A stretch of DNA of 26,655 nucleotides from a virus (taxonomy: Duplodnaviria; Caudoviricetes). The stretch lies in IMG/VR virus record IMGVR_UViG_3300032330_001293, positions 1 to 26,655 of that record; one strand, 5' to 3'. A program made the position numbers and the translations under genes. Within the stretch, counting starts at the first letter, position 1, and each line of letters opens with the position of its first letter. Below the pieces are notes generated by a model. It had not been told where the DNA came from. It saw nothing but the letters and a program-made list of their open reading frames with translations, and made no database searches. Positions 5,892-18,363 of this stretch are shown one piece after another.

Positions 5892-6169
5892 TTAAATTGC
5901 TCCTTTGGTGGTGCGTCGAGGAGATTTAAAAAGCCGAAAAAATCGTTTGCCGCCAACATGAGTTGCGACGCCTCCATCTCATCACAATTTAGGGTGACGA
6001 CTCCTGCAAACTCATCCTCTGCGCGGCCAATGATGACAACAGCCTGCGCTTTGCCTTCTCCATAACACATCACCAACTTGTGTATCAGCAACTTGAAGTG
6101 CGCCTGCTCTTCGTCCGACATCGCCTCAACGCGTCGTTCTAATTCTTTCTGCGACATTGACTCGCTCAT
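5888..6169 (-). CDS. Hypothetical protein
   Basis: GGAGG RBS; overlap-coupled. Confidence 0.75.
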   Translation of the reverse strand: MSESMSQKELERRVEAMSDEEQAHFKLLIHKLVMCYGEGKAQAVVIIGRAEDEFAGVVTLNCDEMEASQLMLAANDFFGFLNLLDAPPKEQFN

Positions 6170-6450
6170 GATAAGACCTCCTTTAAAGTGTGTATGTTGT
6201 CCTCGTTGATGACAACTGCCGTCCCCCCTGCGCCACGTATGCGGCTTAGATGGGCTTCTTGTAGAGCGGTGGTTTTACCCTTACCCGCTTTTGCTTCAAT
6301 GCCGACGAACTTACCGCCAGCACACACGAGAAAGTCAGGCACGCCCGAGTTCCCGTATCCTGTCCCGATGGGCATGGCGTAGTACATGCCAAGCTCATCA
6401 AGAATCTTCCTGATCTGTTTCTTCACTTTCACTTCTGGTGTTGAAGCCAT
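6166..6450 (-). CDS. VRR-NUC family nuclease (putative Holliday junction resolvase)
   Basis: TPEVKVK, GVPDFL, GIEAKAG, TALQ motifs. Confidence 0.88.
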   Translation of the reverse strand: MASTPEVKVKKQIRKILDELGMYYAMPIGTGYGNSGVPDFLVCAGGKFVGIEAKAGKGKTTALQEAHLSRIRGAGGTAVVINEDNIHTLKEVLS

Positions 6451-6847
6451 GTTCTATCTCCATCTTTACTATGCTTGTGCCGTAGACCATTGCCGCCTGC
6501 ATCTGGCGTGAGTAGTTGTACGAGTCTACTGAGTGCCCCCACCACGCCTGCGTCTTCGCTTCTATCTGTCCGCAGTGAATGTCCAACTCCTCGCCTGTCA
6601 CCAGTTTAAACCCATCAGGTGTGGCGATCATGACTTCTTCAGTACGAAGCCTGTTGTAGCGATTGGCAAGTATCATGGCCTCGTCACGCTGTTTGTACAG
6701 CTCACCAATACGTTGCTCCATGTACTTGTCTTTATGTTTGTGGTCGGTCAGCTTGTCCTGCAACAGCCGCACCTGATTCTTCAACTCCTCCACAACATCT
6801 TTCTGAGCGAGGCGTTCAAACTTCTTTTGTTTCCATGCTGCCGTCAT
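6398..6847 (-). CDS. Hypothetical protein, paralog family 2 member E (coiled coil + AxRYxxL domain + variable tail)
   Basis: ANRYNRLR...G...T.EELD aligns by eye with 6844-7125; ATGA coupling. Confidence 0.75.
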   Translation of the reverse strand: MTAAWKQKKFERLAQKDVVEELKNQVRLLQDKLTDHKHKDKYMEQRIGELYKQRDEAMILANRYNRLRTEEVMIATPDGFKLVTGEELDIHCGQIEAKTQAWWGHSVDSYNYSRQMQAAMVYGTSIVKMEIEHGFNTRSESEETDQEDS

Positions 6848-7125
6848 TTTCGATTCTCCTTGATTGTCATTGTGAGTTCTTTCTCCAATATCTTTAACGC
6901 GTGCGTTGTGATGCTTGCAGGGGTGAGTAACCCTGTGCGGATTTCCAATGTATCAATGTAGGCGTCGATCTCTTCGTATGTTTCAAAGTGCAAGGCACCT
7001 TTGTTCTTATCCATGATGACGAGTGTGTCGACAAAGTACTTTAACTTGCGGTAACGCATAGCGTCTTTGAACTGTGCTTCGCCTGTGTCTTTGACGTATT
7101 TGTATTCGTGTGTTTGTGTATCCAT
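6844..7125 (-). CDS. Hypothetical protein, paralog family 2 member D (DAxRYRxL domain + coat-like tail)
   Basis: GGAGAAGC RBS; DAMRYRKLK...EEIDAYID resembles the common phage DAERYRWLR...LDAAID motif. Confidence 0.8.
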   Translation of the reverse strand: MDTQTHEYKYVKDTGEAQFKDAMRYRKLKYFVDTLVIMDKNKGALHFETYEEIDAYIDTLEIRTGLLTPASITTHALKILEKELTMTIKENRK

Positions 7126-7146
7126 TTGCTTCTCCAGTTATTAGGT

Positions 7147-7265
7147 GAGGGGGTTAAGTAGATTCCGCGCCCCCTCGTATCGCGGTGGGGAGTGGCAACA
7201 AGTGGTTTCCTTCGGTCGCCGGACTGACGATCACCTGTTGCCGACAAAGTGTGGTTGCATCTACT
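7147..7265 (-). ncRNA. Candidate structured RNA (three-way junction with pseudoknot)
   Basis: Intergenic. Complementary pairs: 7157-7163/7259-7265, 7194-7204/7232-7242, 7165-7169/7181-7185, and crossing pair 7170-7176/7147-7153. Confidence 0.55.
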
Positions 7266-7297
7266 AGGCTTGCACAAATCGTCTTTATCACACTTCG

Positions 7298-7465
7298 TCA
7301 GTCCTCGGTTCTTTGTTTGTAGTACTTCTTCGGCATGGGCGCGTGCTTCTCAAGCATCTTGCGTATCCATGCGACACCGCCCAAGTCTTTCAACATGGCT
7401 CGGTGGGTTAGCGTTAGTCGTAGTTCCGCACGTGTCAGAGGCTCAACTGGCTTTGGTCTTGGCAT
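7298..7465 (-). CDS. 55-aa protein, possibly ribbon-helix-helix DNA-binding
   Basis: Below the track cutoff: MPRPKPVEPLTRAELRLTLTHRAMLKDLGGVAWIRKMLEKHAPMPKKYYKQRTED. Confidence 0.65.
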   Translation of the reverse strand: MPRPKPVEPLTRAELRLTLTHRAMLKDLGGVAWIRKMLEKHAPMPKKYYKQRTED

Positions 7466-9532: not shown

Positions 9533-10417
9533 TTAGAAGTTGAACTTGTCGAGGATTGCATCGACGTTCTTCTTGACGTCTTGACGGATAGCCTCGTTCT
9601 TGCGCAGATCAGCAGGCGTGACACCCACAAGCAACTGCTCCAACTGACTACGTGCAGTCTCAAGGGCTACGTCATTGGTTACGTTCAACGACTTAGTGAG
9701 ATCACACAACTCAAGCGCACCATCGACAAGCGTGTCGTGGAAGCGCCGTTGCTTAGCCTCGCCGTTCACATAGTCAGTAGTCAATCTGTCTGACATACGT
9801 TTGAGGTGAGTGCTAAGTCTTTCACGCACATCTGCCATAGCAGAGTCGATGCGTTCCTGTGTCAGAGATTCAAGGCGAGCCTTGAGTTCTGCCTGTGCTT
9901 GGTTGCCCACATCCACGCGGAAGTCACCCGATGATGGGACTGGCATGTAGTTAACGCGGAATGAGAACTTAGTCATGATCTCATTGGCGGTGGGGTAGTC
10001 ATCTCTCTTGAACATATCGCCAAGAGCAAGAGCCTGCGCTGTGATAAGCGTAGGGTAGATCGCAACGAAAGCCTTGACCAATGACTCCATCTCTTCCTCG
10101 AAATCATTCATGCGCTCAGTGAACTTCATGAAGTTGACAGTAGGTAAGAGGCGTAAGCCTGAGTCAGACCAAGGCGCTGTGTTGTCGTACACGAACTGAC
10201 GTGCTCGGCCTACGGCCTGCTGAATGATGTCTAGCTCTGTGCGACCTGCGAGCAGGTGCTTGTTAACACGGGCGGCATCCTTAGCGCCTGCGTTCTTGCT
10301 TGCCACCACCTCATCGGTGGTTGACTTGTCGAGCTTGCGTGCTGTCCACACAGAAGCGTTGAACTCCACAAGCATTGCGCATGTGTCGAGATTGTGGCGT
10401 GGTGTAGTTGTTGTCAT
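9533..10417 (-). CDS. DUF3150-like helical phage protein
   Basis: WTARKLD, VNKHLL, PWSDSGLRLLP, DYP motifs; this family usually accompanies phage AAA/VWA pairs. Confidence 0.7.
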   Translation of the reverse strand: MTTTTPRHNLDTCAMLVEFNASVWTARKLDKSTTDEVVASKNAGAKDAARVNKHLLAGRTELDIIQQAVGRARQFVYDNTAPWSDSGLRLLPTVNFMKFTERMNDFEEEMESLVKAFVAIYPTLITAQALALGDMFKRDDYPTANEIMTKFSFRVNYMPVPSSGDFRVDVGNQAQAELKARLESLTQERIDSAMADVRERLSTHLKRMSDRLTTDYVNGEAKQRRFHDTLVDGALELCDLTKSLNVTNDVALETARSQLEQLLVGVTPADLRKNEAIRQDVKKNVDAILDKFNF

Positions 10418-10429
10418 GATAAAGACTCC

Positions 10430-10672
10430 TTAAACTGTGTTGCGGGGATTTTTGAGATAGTTTTTTAGCGCTTGCGCGACGAGTGTTTCAAACTCGTAGG
10501 TGTTGTTCACAATCATTCGGCGAAAGTTGTCAGGGTTGTTGAACGCTTCGCGCACAACTTCGTGTGCAACCTTTGACGCTAGGTTGATGATGTGGCTGTC
10601 TACCTCCTTCTTTAAGTCATCATCACCGAACTGCGTTTGTAATGCCAGTGAGTTAGTTACTGGGTCTGTCAT
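10430..10672 (-). CDS. Hypothetical protein
   Basis: AGGAG RBS; coupled to the upstream gene. Confidence 0.75.
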   Translation of the reverse strand: MTDPVTNSLALQTQFGDDDLKKEVDSHIINLASKVAHEVVREAFNNPDNFRRMIVNNTYEFETLVAQALKNYLKNPRNTV

Positions 10673-11025
10673 TTAACTTCTCCTTTCATTTTGTGCATAC
10701 GCACCATGTTGAGTGCGGCTTGTTTTGGTTTAGCTTTTACGCTGTCGAGTATCTTTTGGTATGCATCCCACAGCACAAACTTGTCCGCGCTATTGAGCGC
10801 AGTTCTGTATGACTCGTCGTGGTAAGGCAGGCCCTTGATGTCGTACAGACGAAAGCCGTGGCGGTCATTACCAATCCAAAACTCTAGGCCTGAACTCATG
10901 TGCGTTATCCTGTACTCGCTGAGCTTCCATTCACCTTCTTCGAACAGGGGCAGTATCTCCTTGCCCAACTCCGACATGCGCTTCTCGCACATGCGGAGGA
11001 ATAGCTTGTATGCAAACTTCCGCAT
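10669..11025 (-). CDS. Hypothetical protein
   Basis: GAGGTG RBS; co-oriented and fills the gap. Confidence 0.75.
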   Translation of the reverse strand: MRKFAYKLFLRMCEKRMSELGKEILPLFEEGEWKLSEYRITHMSSGLEFWIGNDRHGFRLYDIKGLPYHDESYRTALNSADKFVLWDAYQKILDSVKAKPKQAALNMVRMHKMKGEVK

Positions 11026-11033
11026 GCGTCACC

Positions 11034-12158
11034 TCACTTGGTTGAGAAAAAGATCTTGTGCTCGGCCAACATGCGACCGAACTCATTGATGGTTGCGAAC
11101 ATAGCCACACGCTGACTTGTTGCCACTGTGTTGCAGAAGATCGACTGCATCTCTGCACGCATACGCCACACATACTTGACGATAGCCTCAGCCTCGGTGC
11201 GATCGGCCACACGGGTAACGAACTGGAATACCTGAATGAGTTGCGCCGTAGGGTTGTCAGACAGCGGCGCTGTGTCTGGTGACTTGATGACACGAGAGTA
11301 CTCGCAGATCTCACGACCGAAGCGAATGAACGATGACAATGCTTGCGCAGTAGTAGCACCGACAGTACCAACGAGAGCAGACTCAAGCGTGTCGTCATCG
11401 AGAACACCAAGACCTGTGTCGAGGATGTCGCTAGCGGCAACGAGTGAGCGAGGCGTAGCGTATGCAAGTTGCATAGACTTGGGGTTGAAGATGAAGCCGT
11501 TGTCCTTGGACAAGTCCTTGCCCTCGAACATACCGCCCTTCTCGTAGTCCATGAATGATTGCATAACACGTGGCTCGTTGCTAACGAACGCGATAATCAT
11601 TGGGTTGATCTGATTGTCAGTAGCCCACTTGACCCACTCGTCAGCCGTAGGCTTACGCATCTTGACGAACACAAGACGATTGCGTAGGTGCGCTTGGATG
11701 GAATCACCAAGACCCTCGACTGACAGATTGGTAGCACAGAACACAACGCTACCCTCGGGCATGTCAAGGTTACCAACACGACGCTCGTACACGATAGGCG
11801 CAAGAACATTCTTGATGAACTGCGGTGCCTTGGCGATCTCATCGAGCATGACGATGATAGGCTTGGAGTTGTTGACACCGAGTTGGTTGTTGGCACTAAC
11901 ACCGAAGCGCTCGTTGGGTAACTCACGCGATACGCCGTTCTCACGATCGAGGTCGGGCATCCACACAGAGCCGTCAGACAACTGCGTGCAGTCGACAGGC
12001 TTGACTGCGATGTGGTCAGCGAACTTGGGTAACTTACGCAAGGCATGGAAGAGAGCAGTCTTGCCGATGCCGTTCTCGCCCTCGACGATCACTGTGCGCT
12101 TGTCACCGATAGCGGCGATGAGGTTCAATACTTGTTGTGCAGATAAAAAGTTGTTCAT
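11034..12158 (-). CDS. MoxR/AAA_5-like AAA+ ATPase
   Basis: Walker A GENGIGKT, Walker B IVMLDE, sensor CATN, Arg finger LRNRL, TPRS; GGAG RBS before ATG 12158. Confidence 0.9.
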   Translation of the reverse strand: MNNFLSAQQVLNLIAAIGDKRTVIVEGENGIGKTALFHALRKLPKFADHIAVKPVDCTQLSDGSVWMPDLDRENGVSRELPNERFGVSANNQLGVNNSKPIIVMLDEIAKAPQFIKNVLAPIVYERRVGNLDMPEGSVVFCATNLSVEGLGDSIQAHLRNRLVFVKMRKPTADEWVKWATDNQINPMIIAFVSNEPRVMQSFMDYEKGGMFEGKDLSKDNGFIFNPKSMQLAYATPRSLVAASDILDTGLGVLDDDTLESALVGTVGATTAQALSSFIRFGREICEYSRVIKSPDTAPLSDNPTAQLIQVFQFVTRVADRTEAEAIVKYVWRMRAEMQSIFCNTVATSQRVAMFATINEFGRMLAEHKIFFSTK

Positions 12159-12181
12159 GATAAAGATCTCCAAAGATTAAG

Positions 12182-13384
12182 TTAAACAGAAATACGCAGG
12201 ACTTTGCCGTGAGTAGGAACGAATGTCTCGTTCTCCACCACACCCCACAGAGACGGCATAGGAGTGCTAGGGGTATCGCAACCGAGGTAACCATCTGTTA
12301 ACCAGACGATTGCCCGAGCGTCGATCTTGTGTTCCTTGATGTAGTCAACGACAACATCAGGAGTAGTACCGCCACCGCCCTTGGGTTTCATGAGCGTAGC
12401 GATCTGTTCGTAGTCAGCAGGCTTGAATGATTGGTCACCGCATACACTGGTGTCCCACCACAACACACGCACACCCGCAGGCTTGGTGATGTTGCAGATG
12501 CGAGCGATCTCACCGAACAGCAGACGATAGTAAGGATACATTGAGCCCGATGTATCGACAGCGAGGATGAGTTCACCGACTGACTCAGTGAAGTGCGAGG
12601 GCATAACGAAACCGCTAGCGAGCAGGCGCTTGTTGGGAGGACAGAAGCGTGAGTTGTCATCGCCCGCAGAGATAGAGCTAATCCATTCCTGAAGCGCTTG
12701 CTTCCAGTCAGTCGTGCGTTCCTTGGCAGTGCCTAAGATGTCACGACCACCCGCCTCCTTGCCCGCGAGCTTGCGTGCAAGTATCTCGCCTTGACGATTG
12801 GCATCGTCGATCTGCTTGCCAAGCTTCTCTTGCTCGACTGGGTTGTCATCGAACTCGCCGTCCTCGTGCGCATCGATGGGCTCATCGAAGTCACCACTAC
12901 CATTGTCGCCACCCTCACCACTCTCGGGTTCCTTCTTGCCCTGCTTGATGAGGTCATTGAGAACTTGAGGGAAAGACCAACCGAAGTACTTGCGGTCAAT
13001 CAGTAGCGTAGGCGTAGGACGATCAACGAACTTGAAGTCAGGGTCGAGTTCCTCGATGAGTGCATTGACCACATAGTCCTGTGCTACGTTGGTGAGCTTG
13101 GGCATCTTGCGCACGTACTCTCTGAACAAGATGCAGTGCTTGAGGGCTACGTGAAAGTTCTCGTGGAGAACAAGGTAACGCAGTTGCTTGCGTGTGAGTG
13201 GGGCAATGAAGTCAGCGCCATACTTCTTGTCACGACCATTGGTAGCGGCAGTCGGTATCTTGTCTGACACTTCGCTCTTGCCTAGCATGATGACACCTGA
13301 CAGCAAGGCGAACTTAGGGTGACGCATACAGTCAATGTTTGCGGCTTGGACTCTCTGCGTGAGAGTCATCTTCTCATAGCTCAT
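12182..13384 (-). CDS. DUF2201-like metallopeptidase plus VWA domain protein
   Basis: TAATNG, HENFH (HExxH), N..QD..VN; MIDAS DTSGS, GGGGT, LTDG. Confidence 0.9.
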   Translation of the reverse strand: MSYEKMTLTQRVQAANIDCMRHPKFALLSGVIMLGKSEVSDKIPTAATNGRDKKYGADFIAPLTRKQLRYLVLHENFHVALKHCILFREYVRKMPKLTNVAQDYVVNALIEELDPDFKFVDRPTPTLLIDRKYFGWSFPQVLNDLIKQGKKEPESGEGGDNGSGDFDEPIDAHEDGEFDDNPVEQEKLGKQIDDANRQGEILARKLAGKEAGGRDILGTAKERTTDWKQALQEWISSISAGDDNSRFCPPNKRLLASGFVMPSHFTESVGELILAVDTSGSMYPYYRLLFGEIARICNITKPAGVRVLWWDTSVCGDQSFKPADYEQIATLMKPKGGGGTTPDVVVDYIKEHKIDARAIVWLTDGYLGCDTPSTPMPSLWGVVENETFVPTHGKVLRISV

Positions 13385-15965: not shown

Positions 15966-16079
15966 GATAAATCTCCAAAAAATTAAAAATCAATAAAAGA
16001 TGCGGACGTTTTGTCCGCGAGTTAAAAACGTGGCGGGATGCCACAGAAGAAATGACCGTTCTCTTTGTTTTGCGTTGTG

Positions 16080-16427: not shown

Positions 16428-16468
16428 CTTCTTTCTCCTTGAGTTGTTGCGGACAGTTTGTCCGCGAG

Positions 16469-17101
16469 TTATGCCCCTTCGGGGCGGTATTTGATTAAGA
16501 GTGGGACGTGTGAGTGTTTAAAGGTTGGAGGGAGGACTGCCCACATCTCACGGGTGCGGTTGAACACCGCAGGACTTATGTAGTCAGCCCACCTTGTGCT
16601 GATAGGTCGGCGCGGTGTGAGCATGAAGCTCATCTCAGCGTGTGTTTTCTCGTGTTTTAGTAGTCCCATGTACTCGTGATAAAAGGTGGCTTTATCTATG
16701 TAGCCCTTACTCTTGGCGTACATCCATGCGTTCCTTGCGCTGACAATCTCCCACTTGATGGGGTCAAGCACATCGGCTAACTCTGCCTTCCATGCCTTGA
16801 GCCATCGCTTGCGGGCAGACATCGCCTGTTTGTTGCGCTCATCTTGGGCTTGCTTTTCTCTGAGGTGTTTGGCCATGAGCGCGTTCATGTCCCCGCTTTG
16901 CACTTTGTTGTGTATCTCCTTGGCACTGAGCTTTGTCGTTGGTTTGCGCTTTGGACGACAGGCTTTGCAGTTCTTGGATTCGAGGGTCATCCGTACATTG
17001 CCCGCTCGACCCCATGCTTTTGACTGCGCATAGGTGGCAAGGTAGGTGAAATGATTGAGAGGGCGCGACTCCCCACATTTAGCGCACGTTTTGATTTGCA
17101 T
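16469..17101 (-). CDS. Basic hypothetical protein with N-terminal Zn finger
   Basis: CAKC...CKAC; AAGGAG RBS. Confidence 0.82.
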   Translation of the reverse strand: MQIKTCAKCGESRPLNHFTYLATYAQSKAWGRAGNVRMTLESKNCKACRPKRKPTTKLSAKEIHNKVQSGDMNALMAKHLREKQAQDERNKQAMSARKRWLKAWKAELADVLDPIKWEIVSARNAWMYAKSKGYIDKATFYHEYMGLLKHEKTHAEMSFMLTPRRPISTRWADYISPAVFNRTREMWAVLPPTFKHSHVPLLIKYRPEGA

Positions 17102-17516
17102 ACTTTCTCCTTACAGTTTGAGGCTAACTGGCCCACTTGTGTCCCGAGCATACCCACCACTCTGCAAGGTGGTCCAAAAAAAGATGACCACCTGAAACCC
17201 GCATGAACACTGGGGTTGACTTGCATTTGACCACAATACCCACCATTTTTAAAGAACTATTAGGCAAACTTGAAAACACAGACAAAAAGACACACCCACG
17301 TTCATGTAAATATATATATCTAAATGAAAATTGTATTTATATATATAGGTATTGTGGAAGTGGACATTGTGAACGCTAGTATCCATGCGGGTTACGAGAC
17401 GCCCATGTGTGTGTCCACTTGTGCAGAATGGTGGGTATGTGCGAAAATACAACACTTTTACCTCACTTCTCCACAACGTATTGTGGAGAGATGGATGCGG
17501 ACAGATTGTCCGCGAG
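17102..17516. other. Non-coding origin-like region
   Basis: AT-rich (TA)n core at about 17306-17348 flanked by inverted AACCCGCATG and ATACCCACCA repeats. Confidence 0.45.
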
Positions 17517-17723
17517 TTAGAGGAGGCGGAGTTGTTTGGATTGGCGCTTGATGGATTCCCACTCGTCCATGCCTTCGAGCGCACGTTGCTCACGTAGCTT
17601 TGCCTTGTGCGCCATGAGTGCTTTGTGGTTGCGCTTGCCAAGCTCGACCATCTCCACGTATTGTTGGCGCAGTTCACGCATCTGTGACAGGGCATAGTGT
17701 TTGTTCTTTGAGGATTTGCTCAT
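17517..17723 (-). CDS. Hypothetical basic helical protein
   Basis: AAGGAG RBS. Confidence 0.75.
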   Translation of the reverse strand: MSKSSKNKHYALSQMRELRQQYVEMVELGKRNHKALMAHKAKLREQRALEGMDEWESIKRQSKQLRLL

Positions 17724-17955: not shown

Positions 17956-17991
17956 ACCTTACGGAAAAAACTCGCGGACAACTTGTCCGCA

Positions 17992-18363
17992 TCAGATTGA
18001 CTTGAGGAAGCGACGCTTCTCACCTGCGCTCAATGCGCTGTACTTCTTGAGCAACGCATCGACTGGGTCAACCTTGTTGGCAATACGTTTGCCAGACTTC
18101 ACGATGTCTGCGCTTGGGAAGCAGACCTGAAGCACTCGGTTCATCGCACGCTCTGCGGCTGAATCACGAGGGAGAGTTGCGCCACGCTGACCTTGCTTGA
18201 TAGCAACGCCATGCTTCTTGGCCGCCCATTCCATAGCAAGTGGACGTGCGTCAGCACGAGAGCCAATGCCAAGAGCAAGCAGACGCTCTGCAAAACTGGC
18301 GGACGATTTGTCCGCATCATTGAACACAGCGAACACGGCAACACGATTGAATGACTTAGTCAT
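17992..18363 (-). CDS. First gene of the leftward (early) arm, hypothetical
   Basis: GGAG RBS; downstream of a TATAAT promoter. Confidence 0.82.
   Translation of the reverse strand: MTKSFNRVAVFAVFNDADKSSASFAERLLALGIGSRADARPLAMEWAAKKHGVAIKQGQRGATLPRDSAAERAMNRVLQVCFPSADIVKSGKRIANKVDPVDALLKKYSALSAGEKRRFLKSI

Follow-up and report, generated by a model that had tools for sequence, protein, structure and literature searches.

The minus strand of a freshwater phage contig carries, between two short ORFs, a stretch that had been predicted to form a pseudoknotted non-coding RNA, raising the question of what this RNA is and what it could do. The window (the whole stretch of DNA analysed, 26,655 nt) encodes a DNA polymerase, an exonuclease, an AAA ATPase, a DUF2201 protein, a terminase and a portal protein, and no close isolate relative was found, the best polymerase match showing at most 34% identity. 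On the minus strand the RNA is flanked by a 55-aa ORF upstream (stop 7300-7298) and a 93-aa ORF downstream (start 7125), and a VRR-NUC-type gene lies about 700 nt beyond it:

7147..7304, minus strand: whole structured RNA, 158 nt, with six helices and short tertiary pairs, delimited by homologue comparison
7298..7465, minus strand: upstream 55-aa ORF, with its stop within helix P0 and homologues in related phages
6844..7135, minus strand: GGAG ribosome-binding site (7135-7132) and 93-aa ORF of unassigned function, not a fixed partner of the RNA
6166..6450, minus strand: endonuclease/resolvase gene of VRR-NUC type, part of the replication module and the most frequent downstream neighbour among homologues

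Elsewhere in the window, a module encoding DUF3150, AAA ATPase and DUF2201 (metallopeptidase plus VWA-like) proteins occupies positions 9533-13384 in the early operon, and in relatives the RNA can sit inside or behind it. The early control region holds five or six copies, in both orientations, of a 26-28-nt palindromic repeat, GCGGACA...TGTCCGC (13956, 15999-16024, 16446-16471, 17494-17519, 17967-17994 and 18292-18319), which probably serve as repressor operators or form terminator-like hairpins; in loci L545 and L556, comparable GGACA...TGTCC palindromes separate the terminator from the promoter. The adjacent ORFs 545-883, 880-1224 and 1240-1704 have a C-terminal domain in common (BLASTP E values of 1e-8 and 0.015), and a Pfam scan of one of the three returned no family.

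The original prediction had placed four helices within 7147..7265, and all four are found exactly at the positions given: P1 at 7265-7259/7163-7157, P2 at 7242-7232/7204-7194 with its single G-U pair, P3 at 7185-7181/7169-7165 and the pseudoknot at 7176-7170/7153-7147. The interval thus contains all eight strands of these helices and is too short, the RNA reaching 7304 with two further helices, PA and P0. The GGAG begins at 7135, 11 nt past the pseudoknot, in agreement with the end of the element having been put about 12 nt before the ribosome-binding site. P1, thought to close the junction, is present; it does not simply do so from a free 5' end, because PA (7283-7273/7253-7243) encloses its 5' strand. 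With P1 and P2 renamed PC and PB, the elements of the fold, all on the minus strand, are:

7295..7304, minus strand: P0 5' strand, holding the UGA stop (7300-7298) of the upstream ORF
7273..7283, minus strand: PA 5' strand, of a hairpin overlooked in the prediction
7266..7269, minus strand: segment of the 2-bp helix (G7269-C7268 with G7258-C7257) that closes the 9-nt loop, its pairs formed in 61/66 and 64/66 copies
7259..7265, minus strand: PC 5' strand (formerly P1), the kissing loop of PA
7243..7253, minus strand: PA 3' strand, pairing with 7273..7283
7232..7242, minus strand: PB 5' strand (formerly P2), 11 bp with one G-U
7221..7230, minus strand: P0 3' strand, in the PB loop; a peripheral pseudoknot, lost or replaced by a hairpin in some homologues
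7194..7204, minus strand: PB 3' strand (formerly P2), pairing with 7232..7242
7181..7185, minus strand: P3 5' strand, pairing with 7165-7169
7170..7176, minus strand: 5' strand of the pseudoknot PK, in the P3 loop
7154..7169, minus strand: candidate ring path, 16 nt, made of the P3 3' strand, the invariant A7164, the PC 3' strand (7163-7157) and a 3-nt linker
7157..7163, minus strand: PC 3' strand (formerly P1), within the candidate ring path
7147..7153, minus strand: PK 3' strand, followed by ACC

To ask whether this structure is more than a chance arrangement, homologues were collected by pattern scans that yielded 35 viral, 120 metagenome and then 119 further viral loci; of the metagenome loci, 76 out of 120 passed a descriptor, and of the 100 further viral loci submitted to a covariance model about 64 were matched. 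Clustering at 85% left 57 representatives, to which 9 were added by hand, giving 66 copies. One hit (L069, 32 bits), which overlaps an ORF end, was judged a chance match and set aside. The set of four helices did not recur in 2000 dinucleotide shuffles of the 119 nt, nor in 2654 tiles of 119 nt taken every 20 nt along the window, none of which falls exactly on the element; the pseudoknot-free folding energy by itself is not significant (z -0.76). In an alignment of 58 sequences fitted to PA, PB and P3, with P0, PC and PK left out of the fitting, 83.4% of cells are paired versus 66.8% in shuffles and 39-49% in slid registers, double-sided changes occur at 40 of 47 pairs, and PK is paired in 94.6% of cells. 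The pairs with the highest mutual information belong to P3, PK and the first position of PC. Six PC pairs seemed invariant, partly because the search patterns required them, and two of these change in a compensatory manner in loci found through the VRR-NUC protein (L517, L556 and L545). A likeness of PC to the Cas12a repeat stem was considered and abandoned, since the pairs concerned are altered in three homologues. The register of P0 shifts, so that 50% of its cells are paired at fixed columns; tested on 38 of 43 representatives, five having been dropped as mis-parsed or of a hairpin subtype, its own duplex gives -17.6 versus -9.5 kcal/mol when permuted, a value reached in 0 of 5000 permutations. 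At the fixed columns of PA, P3 and PK, G-U cells outnumber A-C cells by 68 to 12, which bears out the earlier choice of the minus strand. Pairing between the junction and the Shine-Dalgarno sequence does not covary and was rejected, as were other candidate pairings; in the same test, the value for PKb with the tail is an artefact caused by missing duplexes.

The homologues thus do carry compensatory changes, since P2, P3, the pseudoknot and three pairs of P1 covary, and the prediction of a pseudoknotted structured RNA stands. With three interlocked pseudoknots, unusually clean covariation and compensating mutations across dozens of related phages and a few bacterial genomes, we regard the reality of this RNA structure as practically certain.

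Its strands run, 5' to 3', P0a, PAa, PCa, PAb, PBa, P0b, PBb, P3a, PKa, P3b, A, PCb, PKb, and ViennaRNA predicts PA and PB unaided, including the 2-bp helix closing the 9-nt loop. The RNA therefore consists of two pseudoknotted domains linked by a kissing helix, PC, in which the 9-nt loop of PA pairs with the long loop of the H-type pseudoknot P3/PK. The 2-bp helix and PC form in turn an H-type pseudoknot with a two-base loop, C7267 and U7266, which we infer to cross the major groove of PC; the C is found at the position equivalent to 7267 in 66/66 copies, in part imposed by a search rule. Such a loop in the major groove would explain a near-invariant PC without catalysis. A7180, just after the P3 5' strand, pairs with U7156 (A-U in 47/57, G-C in 5/57), a contact of the first L3 base with the base after PC. 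P0 is not required, as a hairpin takes its place in L229, L381, L388 and L410, and minimal natural forms of 105-120 nt (L545, L556, L578) lack it. One copy (L373:1380-1536) is without PAb, PB and the junction, seemingly deleted between two short GC sites, apparently by natural deletion or through an assembly error.

This RNA is an uncatalogued family, outside every family tested. As had been proposed, the window was searched against Rfam: no family matched at the element (E<=1), and one chance match was obtained elsewhere. Twelve divergent loci gave three weak sub-threshold matches and no family at E<=5, and 20 MerR loci gave one tRNA only. A blastn search of the element against 50,697 phage records returned no match. 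No description of the RNA was found in the literature, where the supplementary lists of two motif surveys (PMC10690425, PMC5737381) could include it; among the supplements of PMC10690425, the 7 files searched held no match to the motif.

Its distribution is patchy. Among loci collected independently via the VRR-NUC protein, the RNA is present in 75 of 80 close and 7 of 80 distant ones; it is missing from two near-complete relatives, isolate regions L357 and L358 hold no copy, and at least three gains or losses are forced on the VRR-NUC tree. All 5 complete carrier genomes have one copy each. A pattern scan of GTDB gave 117 loci with one true member, on a contig titled Limnohabitans sp.; 5 of 139 genomes of the genus of this Limnohabitans MAG match, while in the family and order genome samples only the centre genome does (1/151 each). 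From the carrier genomes in it, this Limnohabitans genus is the likely host of the phage. Two contigs of one freshwater metatranscriptome cover the element at a depth of about 2, which says nothing on expression, ends or level, and the even cover of a relative's flanks in a second run is probably DNA and so uninformative on expression.

The genes around the RNA differ markedly on its two sides. Upstream, 57 of 66 copies have the end of an ORF of 48 codons or more at 25-52 nt ahead of the core, versus 4 of 66 on the antisense strand; clustering sorts the 59 upstream proteins into 23 groups, the stop codons are TAA (22), TGA (21) and TAG (20), and the stop overlaps P0 in 27 of 42 parsed copies. 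Downstream, 44 of 57 copies, including that of this window, have a ribosome-binding site and start no more than 45 nt away, the others being followed by a promoter (4/57) or another arrangement (8/57) or being too short (1/57). The downstream proteins form 12 clusters, with VRR-NUC in 58 of 90, about half of the loci having been found via the VRR-NUC gene itself. Six copies end in an intrinsic terminator whose stem does not overlap the RNA; in L442 a separate promoter follows the terminator, and in L584 an 11-of-12 sigma-70 promoter directly follows the RNA and precedes a leaderless gene. Promoters close to the sigma-70 consensus also lie 6-8 nt ahead of the VRR-NUC start codon (L584:2967-3000, and in L053, L400 and L452), implying leaderless replication-operon mRNAs.

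Within one phage family the RNA occupies different junctions, from AAA to DUF2201, from DUF2201 to the next gene, and before VRR-NUC, polymerase, HNH and exonuclease genes. It marks the border of early and replication genes in most phage copies and is also found inside operons of the AAA-VWA and MerR-VIT types. Three genomes of that Limnohabitans genus have it in a 175-198-nt gap between the MerR and VIT-VWA genes; at 23 other MerR/VIT-VWA loci, none of which matches the covariance model, the two genes lie within -38 to +51 nt of each other in 21, with a 4-nt overlap in 11, and two were not resolved. In the closest such operon without the RNA (L485), the MerR stop is followed by another kind of gap, about 145 nt long and containing hairpins, which matched neither the RNA model nor Rfam. 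L359, L408 and L482, the last a degenerate copy, have no upstream ORF. In L359 a tRNA gene (1134-1209) follows sspB, then comes island-like DNA with the copy (1500-1670) and, judged by eye only, a promoter-like sequence just upstream of P0.

With its upstream side linked to stop codons and its downstream side varied, the RNA is tied to the preceding and not to the following gene. The proposed link to the downstream gene pair is not supported, as downstream genes vary and a terminator or promoter comes after the RNA in some copies. The pair itself (6844-7125 and 6398-6847), taken for paralogs, shows no direct BLASTP match at E<0.1, although the homologues of its members fall in one single-linkage cluster. 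For the same reason we consider it very unlikely that the RNA is a 5' leader, riboswitch or protein-bound operator, controlling the next gene: the close ribosome-binding site and start in most copies and the frequency of VRR-NUC as next gene would suit such a role, but the terminators, the promoters, above all the one in L584, the 12 downstream protein clusters and the want of a covarying junction-to-Shine-Dalgarno pairing argue against it. A recoding signal that fuses the upstream and downstream ORFs by readthrough, frameshift or hop was suggested by the succession of stop codon, short spacer and strong structure, and is hardly credible given that the distances from stop to start are spread over the three frames (19, 11, 10), that intervening frames contain stops in nearly every copy and that all three stop codons are used; a readthrough or frameshift fusion was rejected, as no constant open frame joins the two ORFs. 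A tRNA or tRNA-like element was likewise rejected, in line with the prediction that the element does not resemble a tRNA: ARAGORN finds none, and a 12-bp acceptor stack with a CCA end is not conserved either, since ACC is present in about 45 of 57 copies, the fourth base is A in 12 of 57, and PK varies from 5 to 8 bp.

The position of the RNA where ribosomes leave the message, its frequent place at the early/replication border and the terminators after six copies are what a cis-acting antiterminator or Rho roadblock would predict, a knot behind the stop that halts Rho or modifies RNA polymerase so that transcription continues into the replication genes. We hold this for quite improbable, since a terminator can be followed by a separate promoter, the terminator stems do not overlap the RNA and the RNA also sits within AAA-VWA and MerR-VIT operons. 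The single copy per genome, the lack of a fixed neighbour gene, the patchy occurrence among relatives, the copies that end a transcription unit and the three without an upstream ORF would also fit an accessory RNA gene that inserts in any transcribed gap, is released by host RNases, has its 3' end protected by P3/PK and acts in trans as a decoy or sponge of a host protein. This seems unlikely to us, as no protein partner travels along with the RNA and a tRNA-like 3' end is not kept.

Among the four functions originally listed, riboswitch-like elements are disfavoured, nuclease-resistant RNA fits best, and ribozyme and decoy are less probable. Our preferred reading, which we put forward tentatively by analogy, is that the RNA is a knot that halts 5'-to-3' decay and works like an xrRNA, the kind of RNA by which viruses of animals and plants resist nucleases. 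The strand running from P3 through PC to PK would encircle C7267 and U7266, the two nucleotides leading into PC; once the upstream message is cut, decay would stop at the knot and leave a stable downstream RNA, which would be a 5'-protected replication-gene mRNA where a ribosome-binding site follows and a short non-coding RNA where a terminator follows. The enzyme blocked could be a host beta-CASP nuclease, Rho or a scanning RNase E. Because P0 lies partly in the stretch covered by a ribosome that terminates at the stop, whether it pairs would depend on translation of the upstream ORF.

Several observations are in favour of this roadblock. The ring path measures 15-16 nt in 55 of 57 copies, and in 33 of the 35 whose spacing was not fixed by the pattern, this length being a secondary-structure proxy and not a 3D measure, with a parser that allowed about 12-22 nt; it is 16-19 nt in seven divergent copies. 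Other segments vary (49-79 nt from PC to P3, 7-13 nt for L3), and the junction of PC, PB and P3 has a one-nucleotide link in 50 of 57. The position at stop codons, the 23 upstream clusters and the occurrence of both coding and terminator endings point the same way, with the reservation that closeness to the stop may reflect only compact genomes. A candidate nuclease, by sequence, is a beta-CASP protein encoded in 66 of 139 genomes, mostly incomplete, of the likely host genus; this protein is of CPSF type and about 460 aa long. Against the roadblock, none of these 139 genomes encodes RNase J (control, 7/14), and copies followed by a promoter and a leaderless gene, such as L584, have no downstream message to protect. 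Moreover, P0 and the outer stem of PA, both 5' of the supposed ring, show covariation, a sign that the 5' flank needs to be intact. We regard as rather doubtful the wider proposal, again by analogy, that a ring-threaded knot of xrRNA type was invented independently in DNA phages, as an accessory RNA that settled behind stops at many junctions, entered host MerR/VIT-VWA operons and blocks a 5'-to-3' motor (beta-CASP nuclease or Rho) in hosts without RNase J, yielding decay-generated messages and small RNAs resembling sfRNAs.

The many junctions occupied in one phage family, together with a MerR/VIT-VWA junction that leaves little space in 21 of 23 other loci, may also be viewed as the trace of a new class of self-cleaving ribozyme by which polycistronic phage transcripts would be severed where genes meet. 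Judging from the analogous strand order in HDV-like ribozymes, cleavage would be expected between 7266 and 7265. The compact nested pseudoknots and conserved core are compatible with this, as is a wandering position like that described, in the accessible parts of three reports, for prophage hammerheads (PMC3088659, PMC6765202, PMC8782182). We nevertheless judge such a ribozyme improbable. No known ribozyme family matched in Rfam; 40 neighbouring phage loci, most of them without the RNA, gave no hit at the gathering score, ribozymes included. A pairing equivalent to HDV P2 is unsupported (own versus permuted duplex, -4.29 versus -4.05, p=0.12), invariant unpaired bases are few and accounted for as triples, and there is a single copy in each of the 5 complete genomes. 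Six copies are terminator-ended, and comparable terminator-ended motifs did not self-cleave according to the available portion of one survey (PMC5737381).

Whatever its role, the RNA has an uncatalogued fold and comes from a group of freshwater phages that is common. If the roadblock reading is true, DNA phages share the xrRNA principle with the RNA viruses of eukaryotes, and betaproteobacteria would be expected to possess a 5'-to-3' activity that has gone unrecognised; if the RNA cleaves itself, it constitutes a new ribozyme class. The natural minimal forms make function tests and structure determination cheap.

The RNA can finally be set beside known systems. It resembles highly conserved bacterial motifs that have 3' terminators and no assigned function and are improbable as riboswitches, and departs from them in having no Rfam match, a terminator in a minority of copies and no constant protein partner. 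HDV-like ribozymes have the strand order P1, P3, P1.1, with a 7-bp first helix and a single pair stacked after its 3' strand, as well as a 3-bp P3, a 1-2-bp P1.1, a P4 and a catalytic C in J4/2. The order PC, P3, PK found here corresponds to theirs, the first helix is also of 7 bp and a single pair is also stacked after the PC 3' strand. In contrast, P3 has 5 bp, the loop helix (PK) 5-8 bp, there is no equivalent of P2 or P4, and conserved structure extends 5' of the would-be cut; in most copies no hairpin comes after PC. As far as the accessible parts of two reports describe them (PMC3088659, PMC6765202), hammerheads flank variable prophage genes and have been proposed to process long phage transcripts. 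Like these hammerhead and twister ribozymes of phage operons, the RNA is intergenic and lies beside variable genes of phages or mobile elements, whereas it has no consensus in common with them and occurs once per genome instead of in clusters.

In the available portion of the structural literature (PMC8374639), the defining features of xrRNAs are a three-way junction into which a 5' strand pairs, a pseudoknot that latches the fold and a ring of 15-16 nt, and these RNAs are called a generic roadblock that also stops RNase J1; no hairpin like PA is described there. Unlike those of flaviviruses, the RNA belongs to a DNA phage with a bacterial host whose genus lacks RNase J, has an additional P0 and shows no sequence match in Rfam. 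Its equivalent of P1 is a 7-bp helix whose 5' strand is the loop of hairpin PA, and the 2-bp junction pairing, which would stand in for PK1 and its conserved base triple, is made with the link after P1, within PA, the triples being only presumed. In common with classes 1 and 2 of the flavivirus xrRNAs as given in that portion (PMC8374639), it has a three-way junction, here of PC, PB and P3, and a second pseudoknot in which the P3 loop pairs with nucleotides that follow PC. The 5' strand that pairs back at the junction and the predicted ring path of 15-16 nt would be further points of likeness, and its place where a 3' untranslated stretch starts is similar to theirs.
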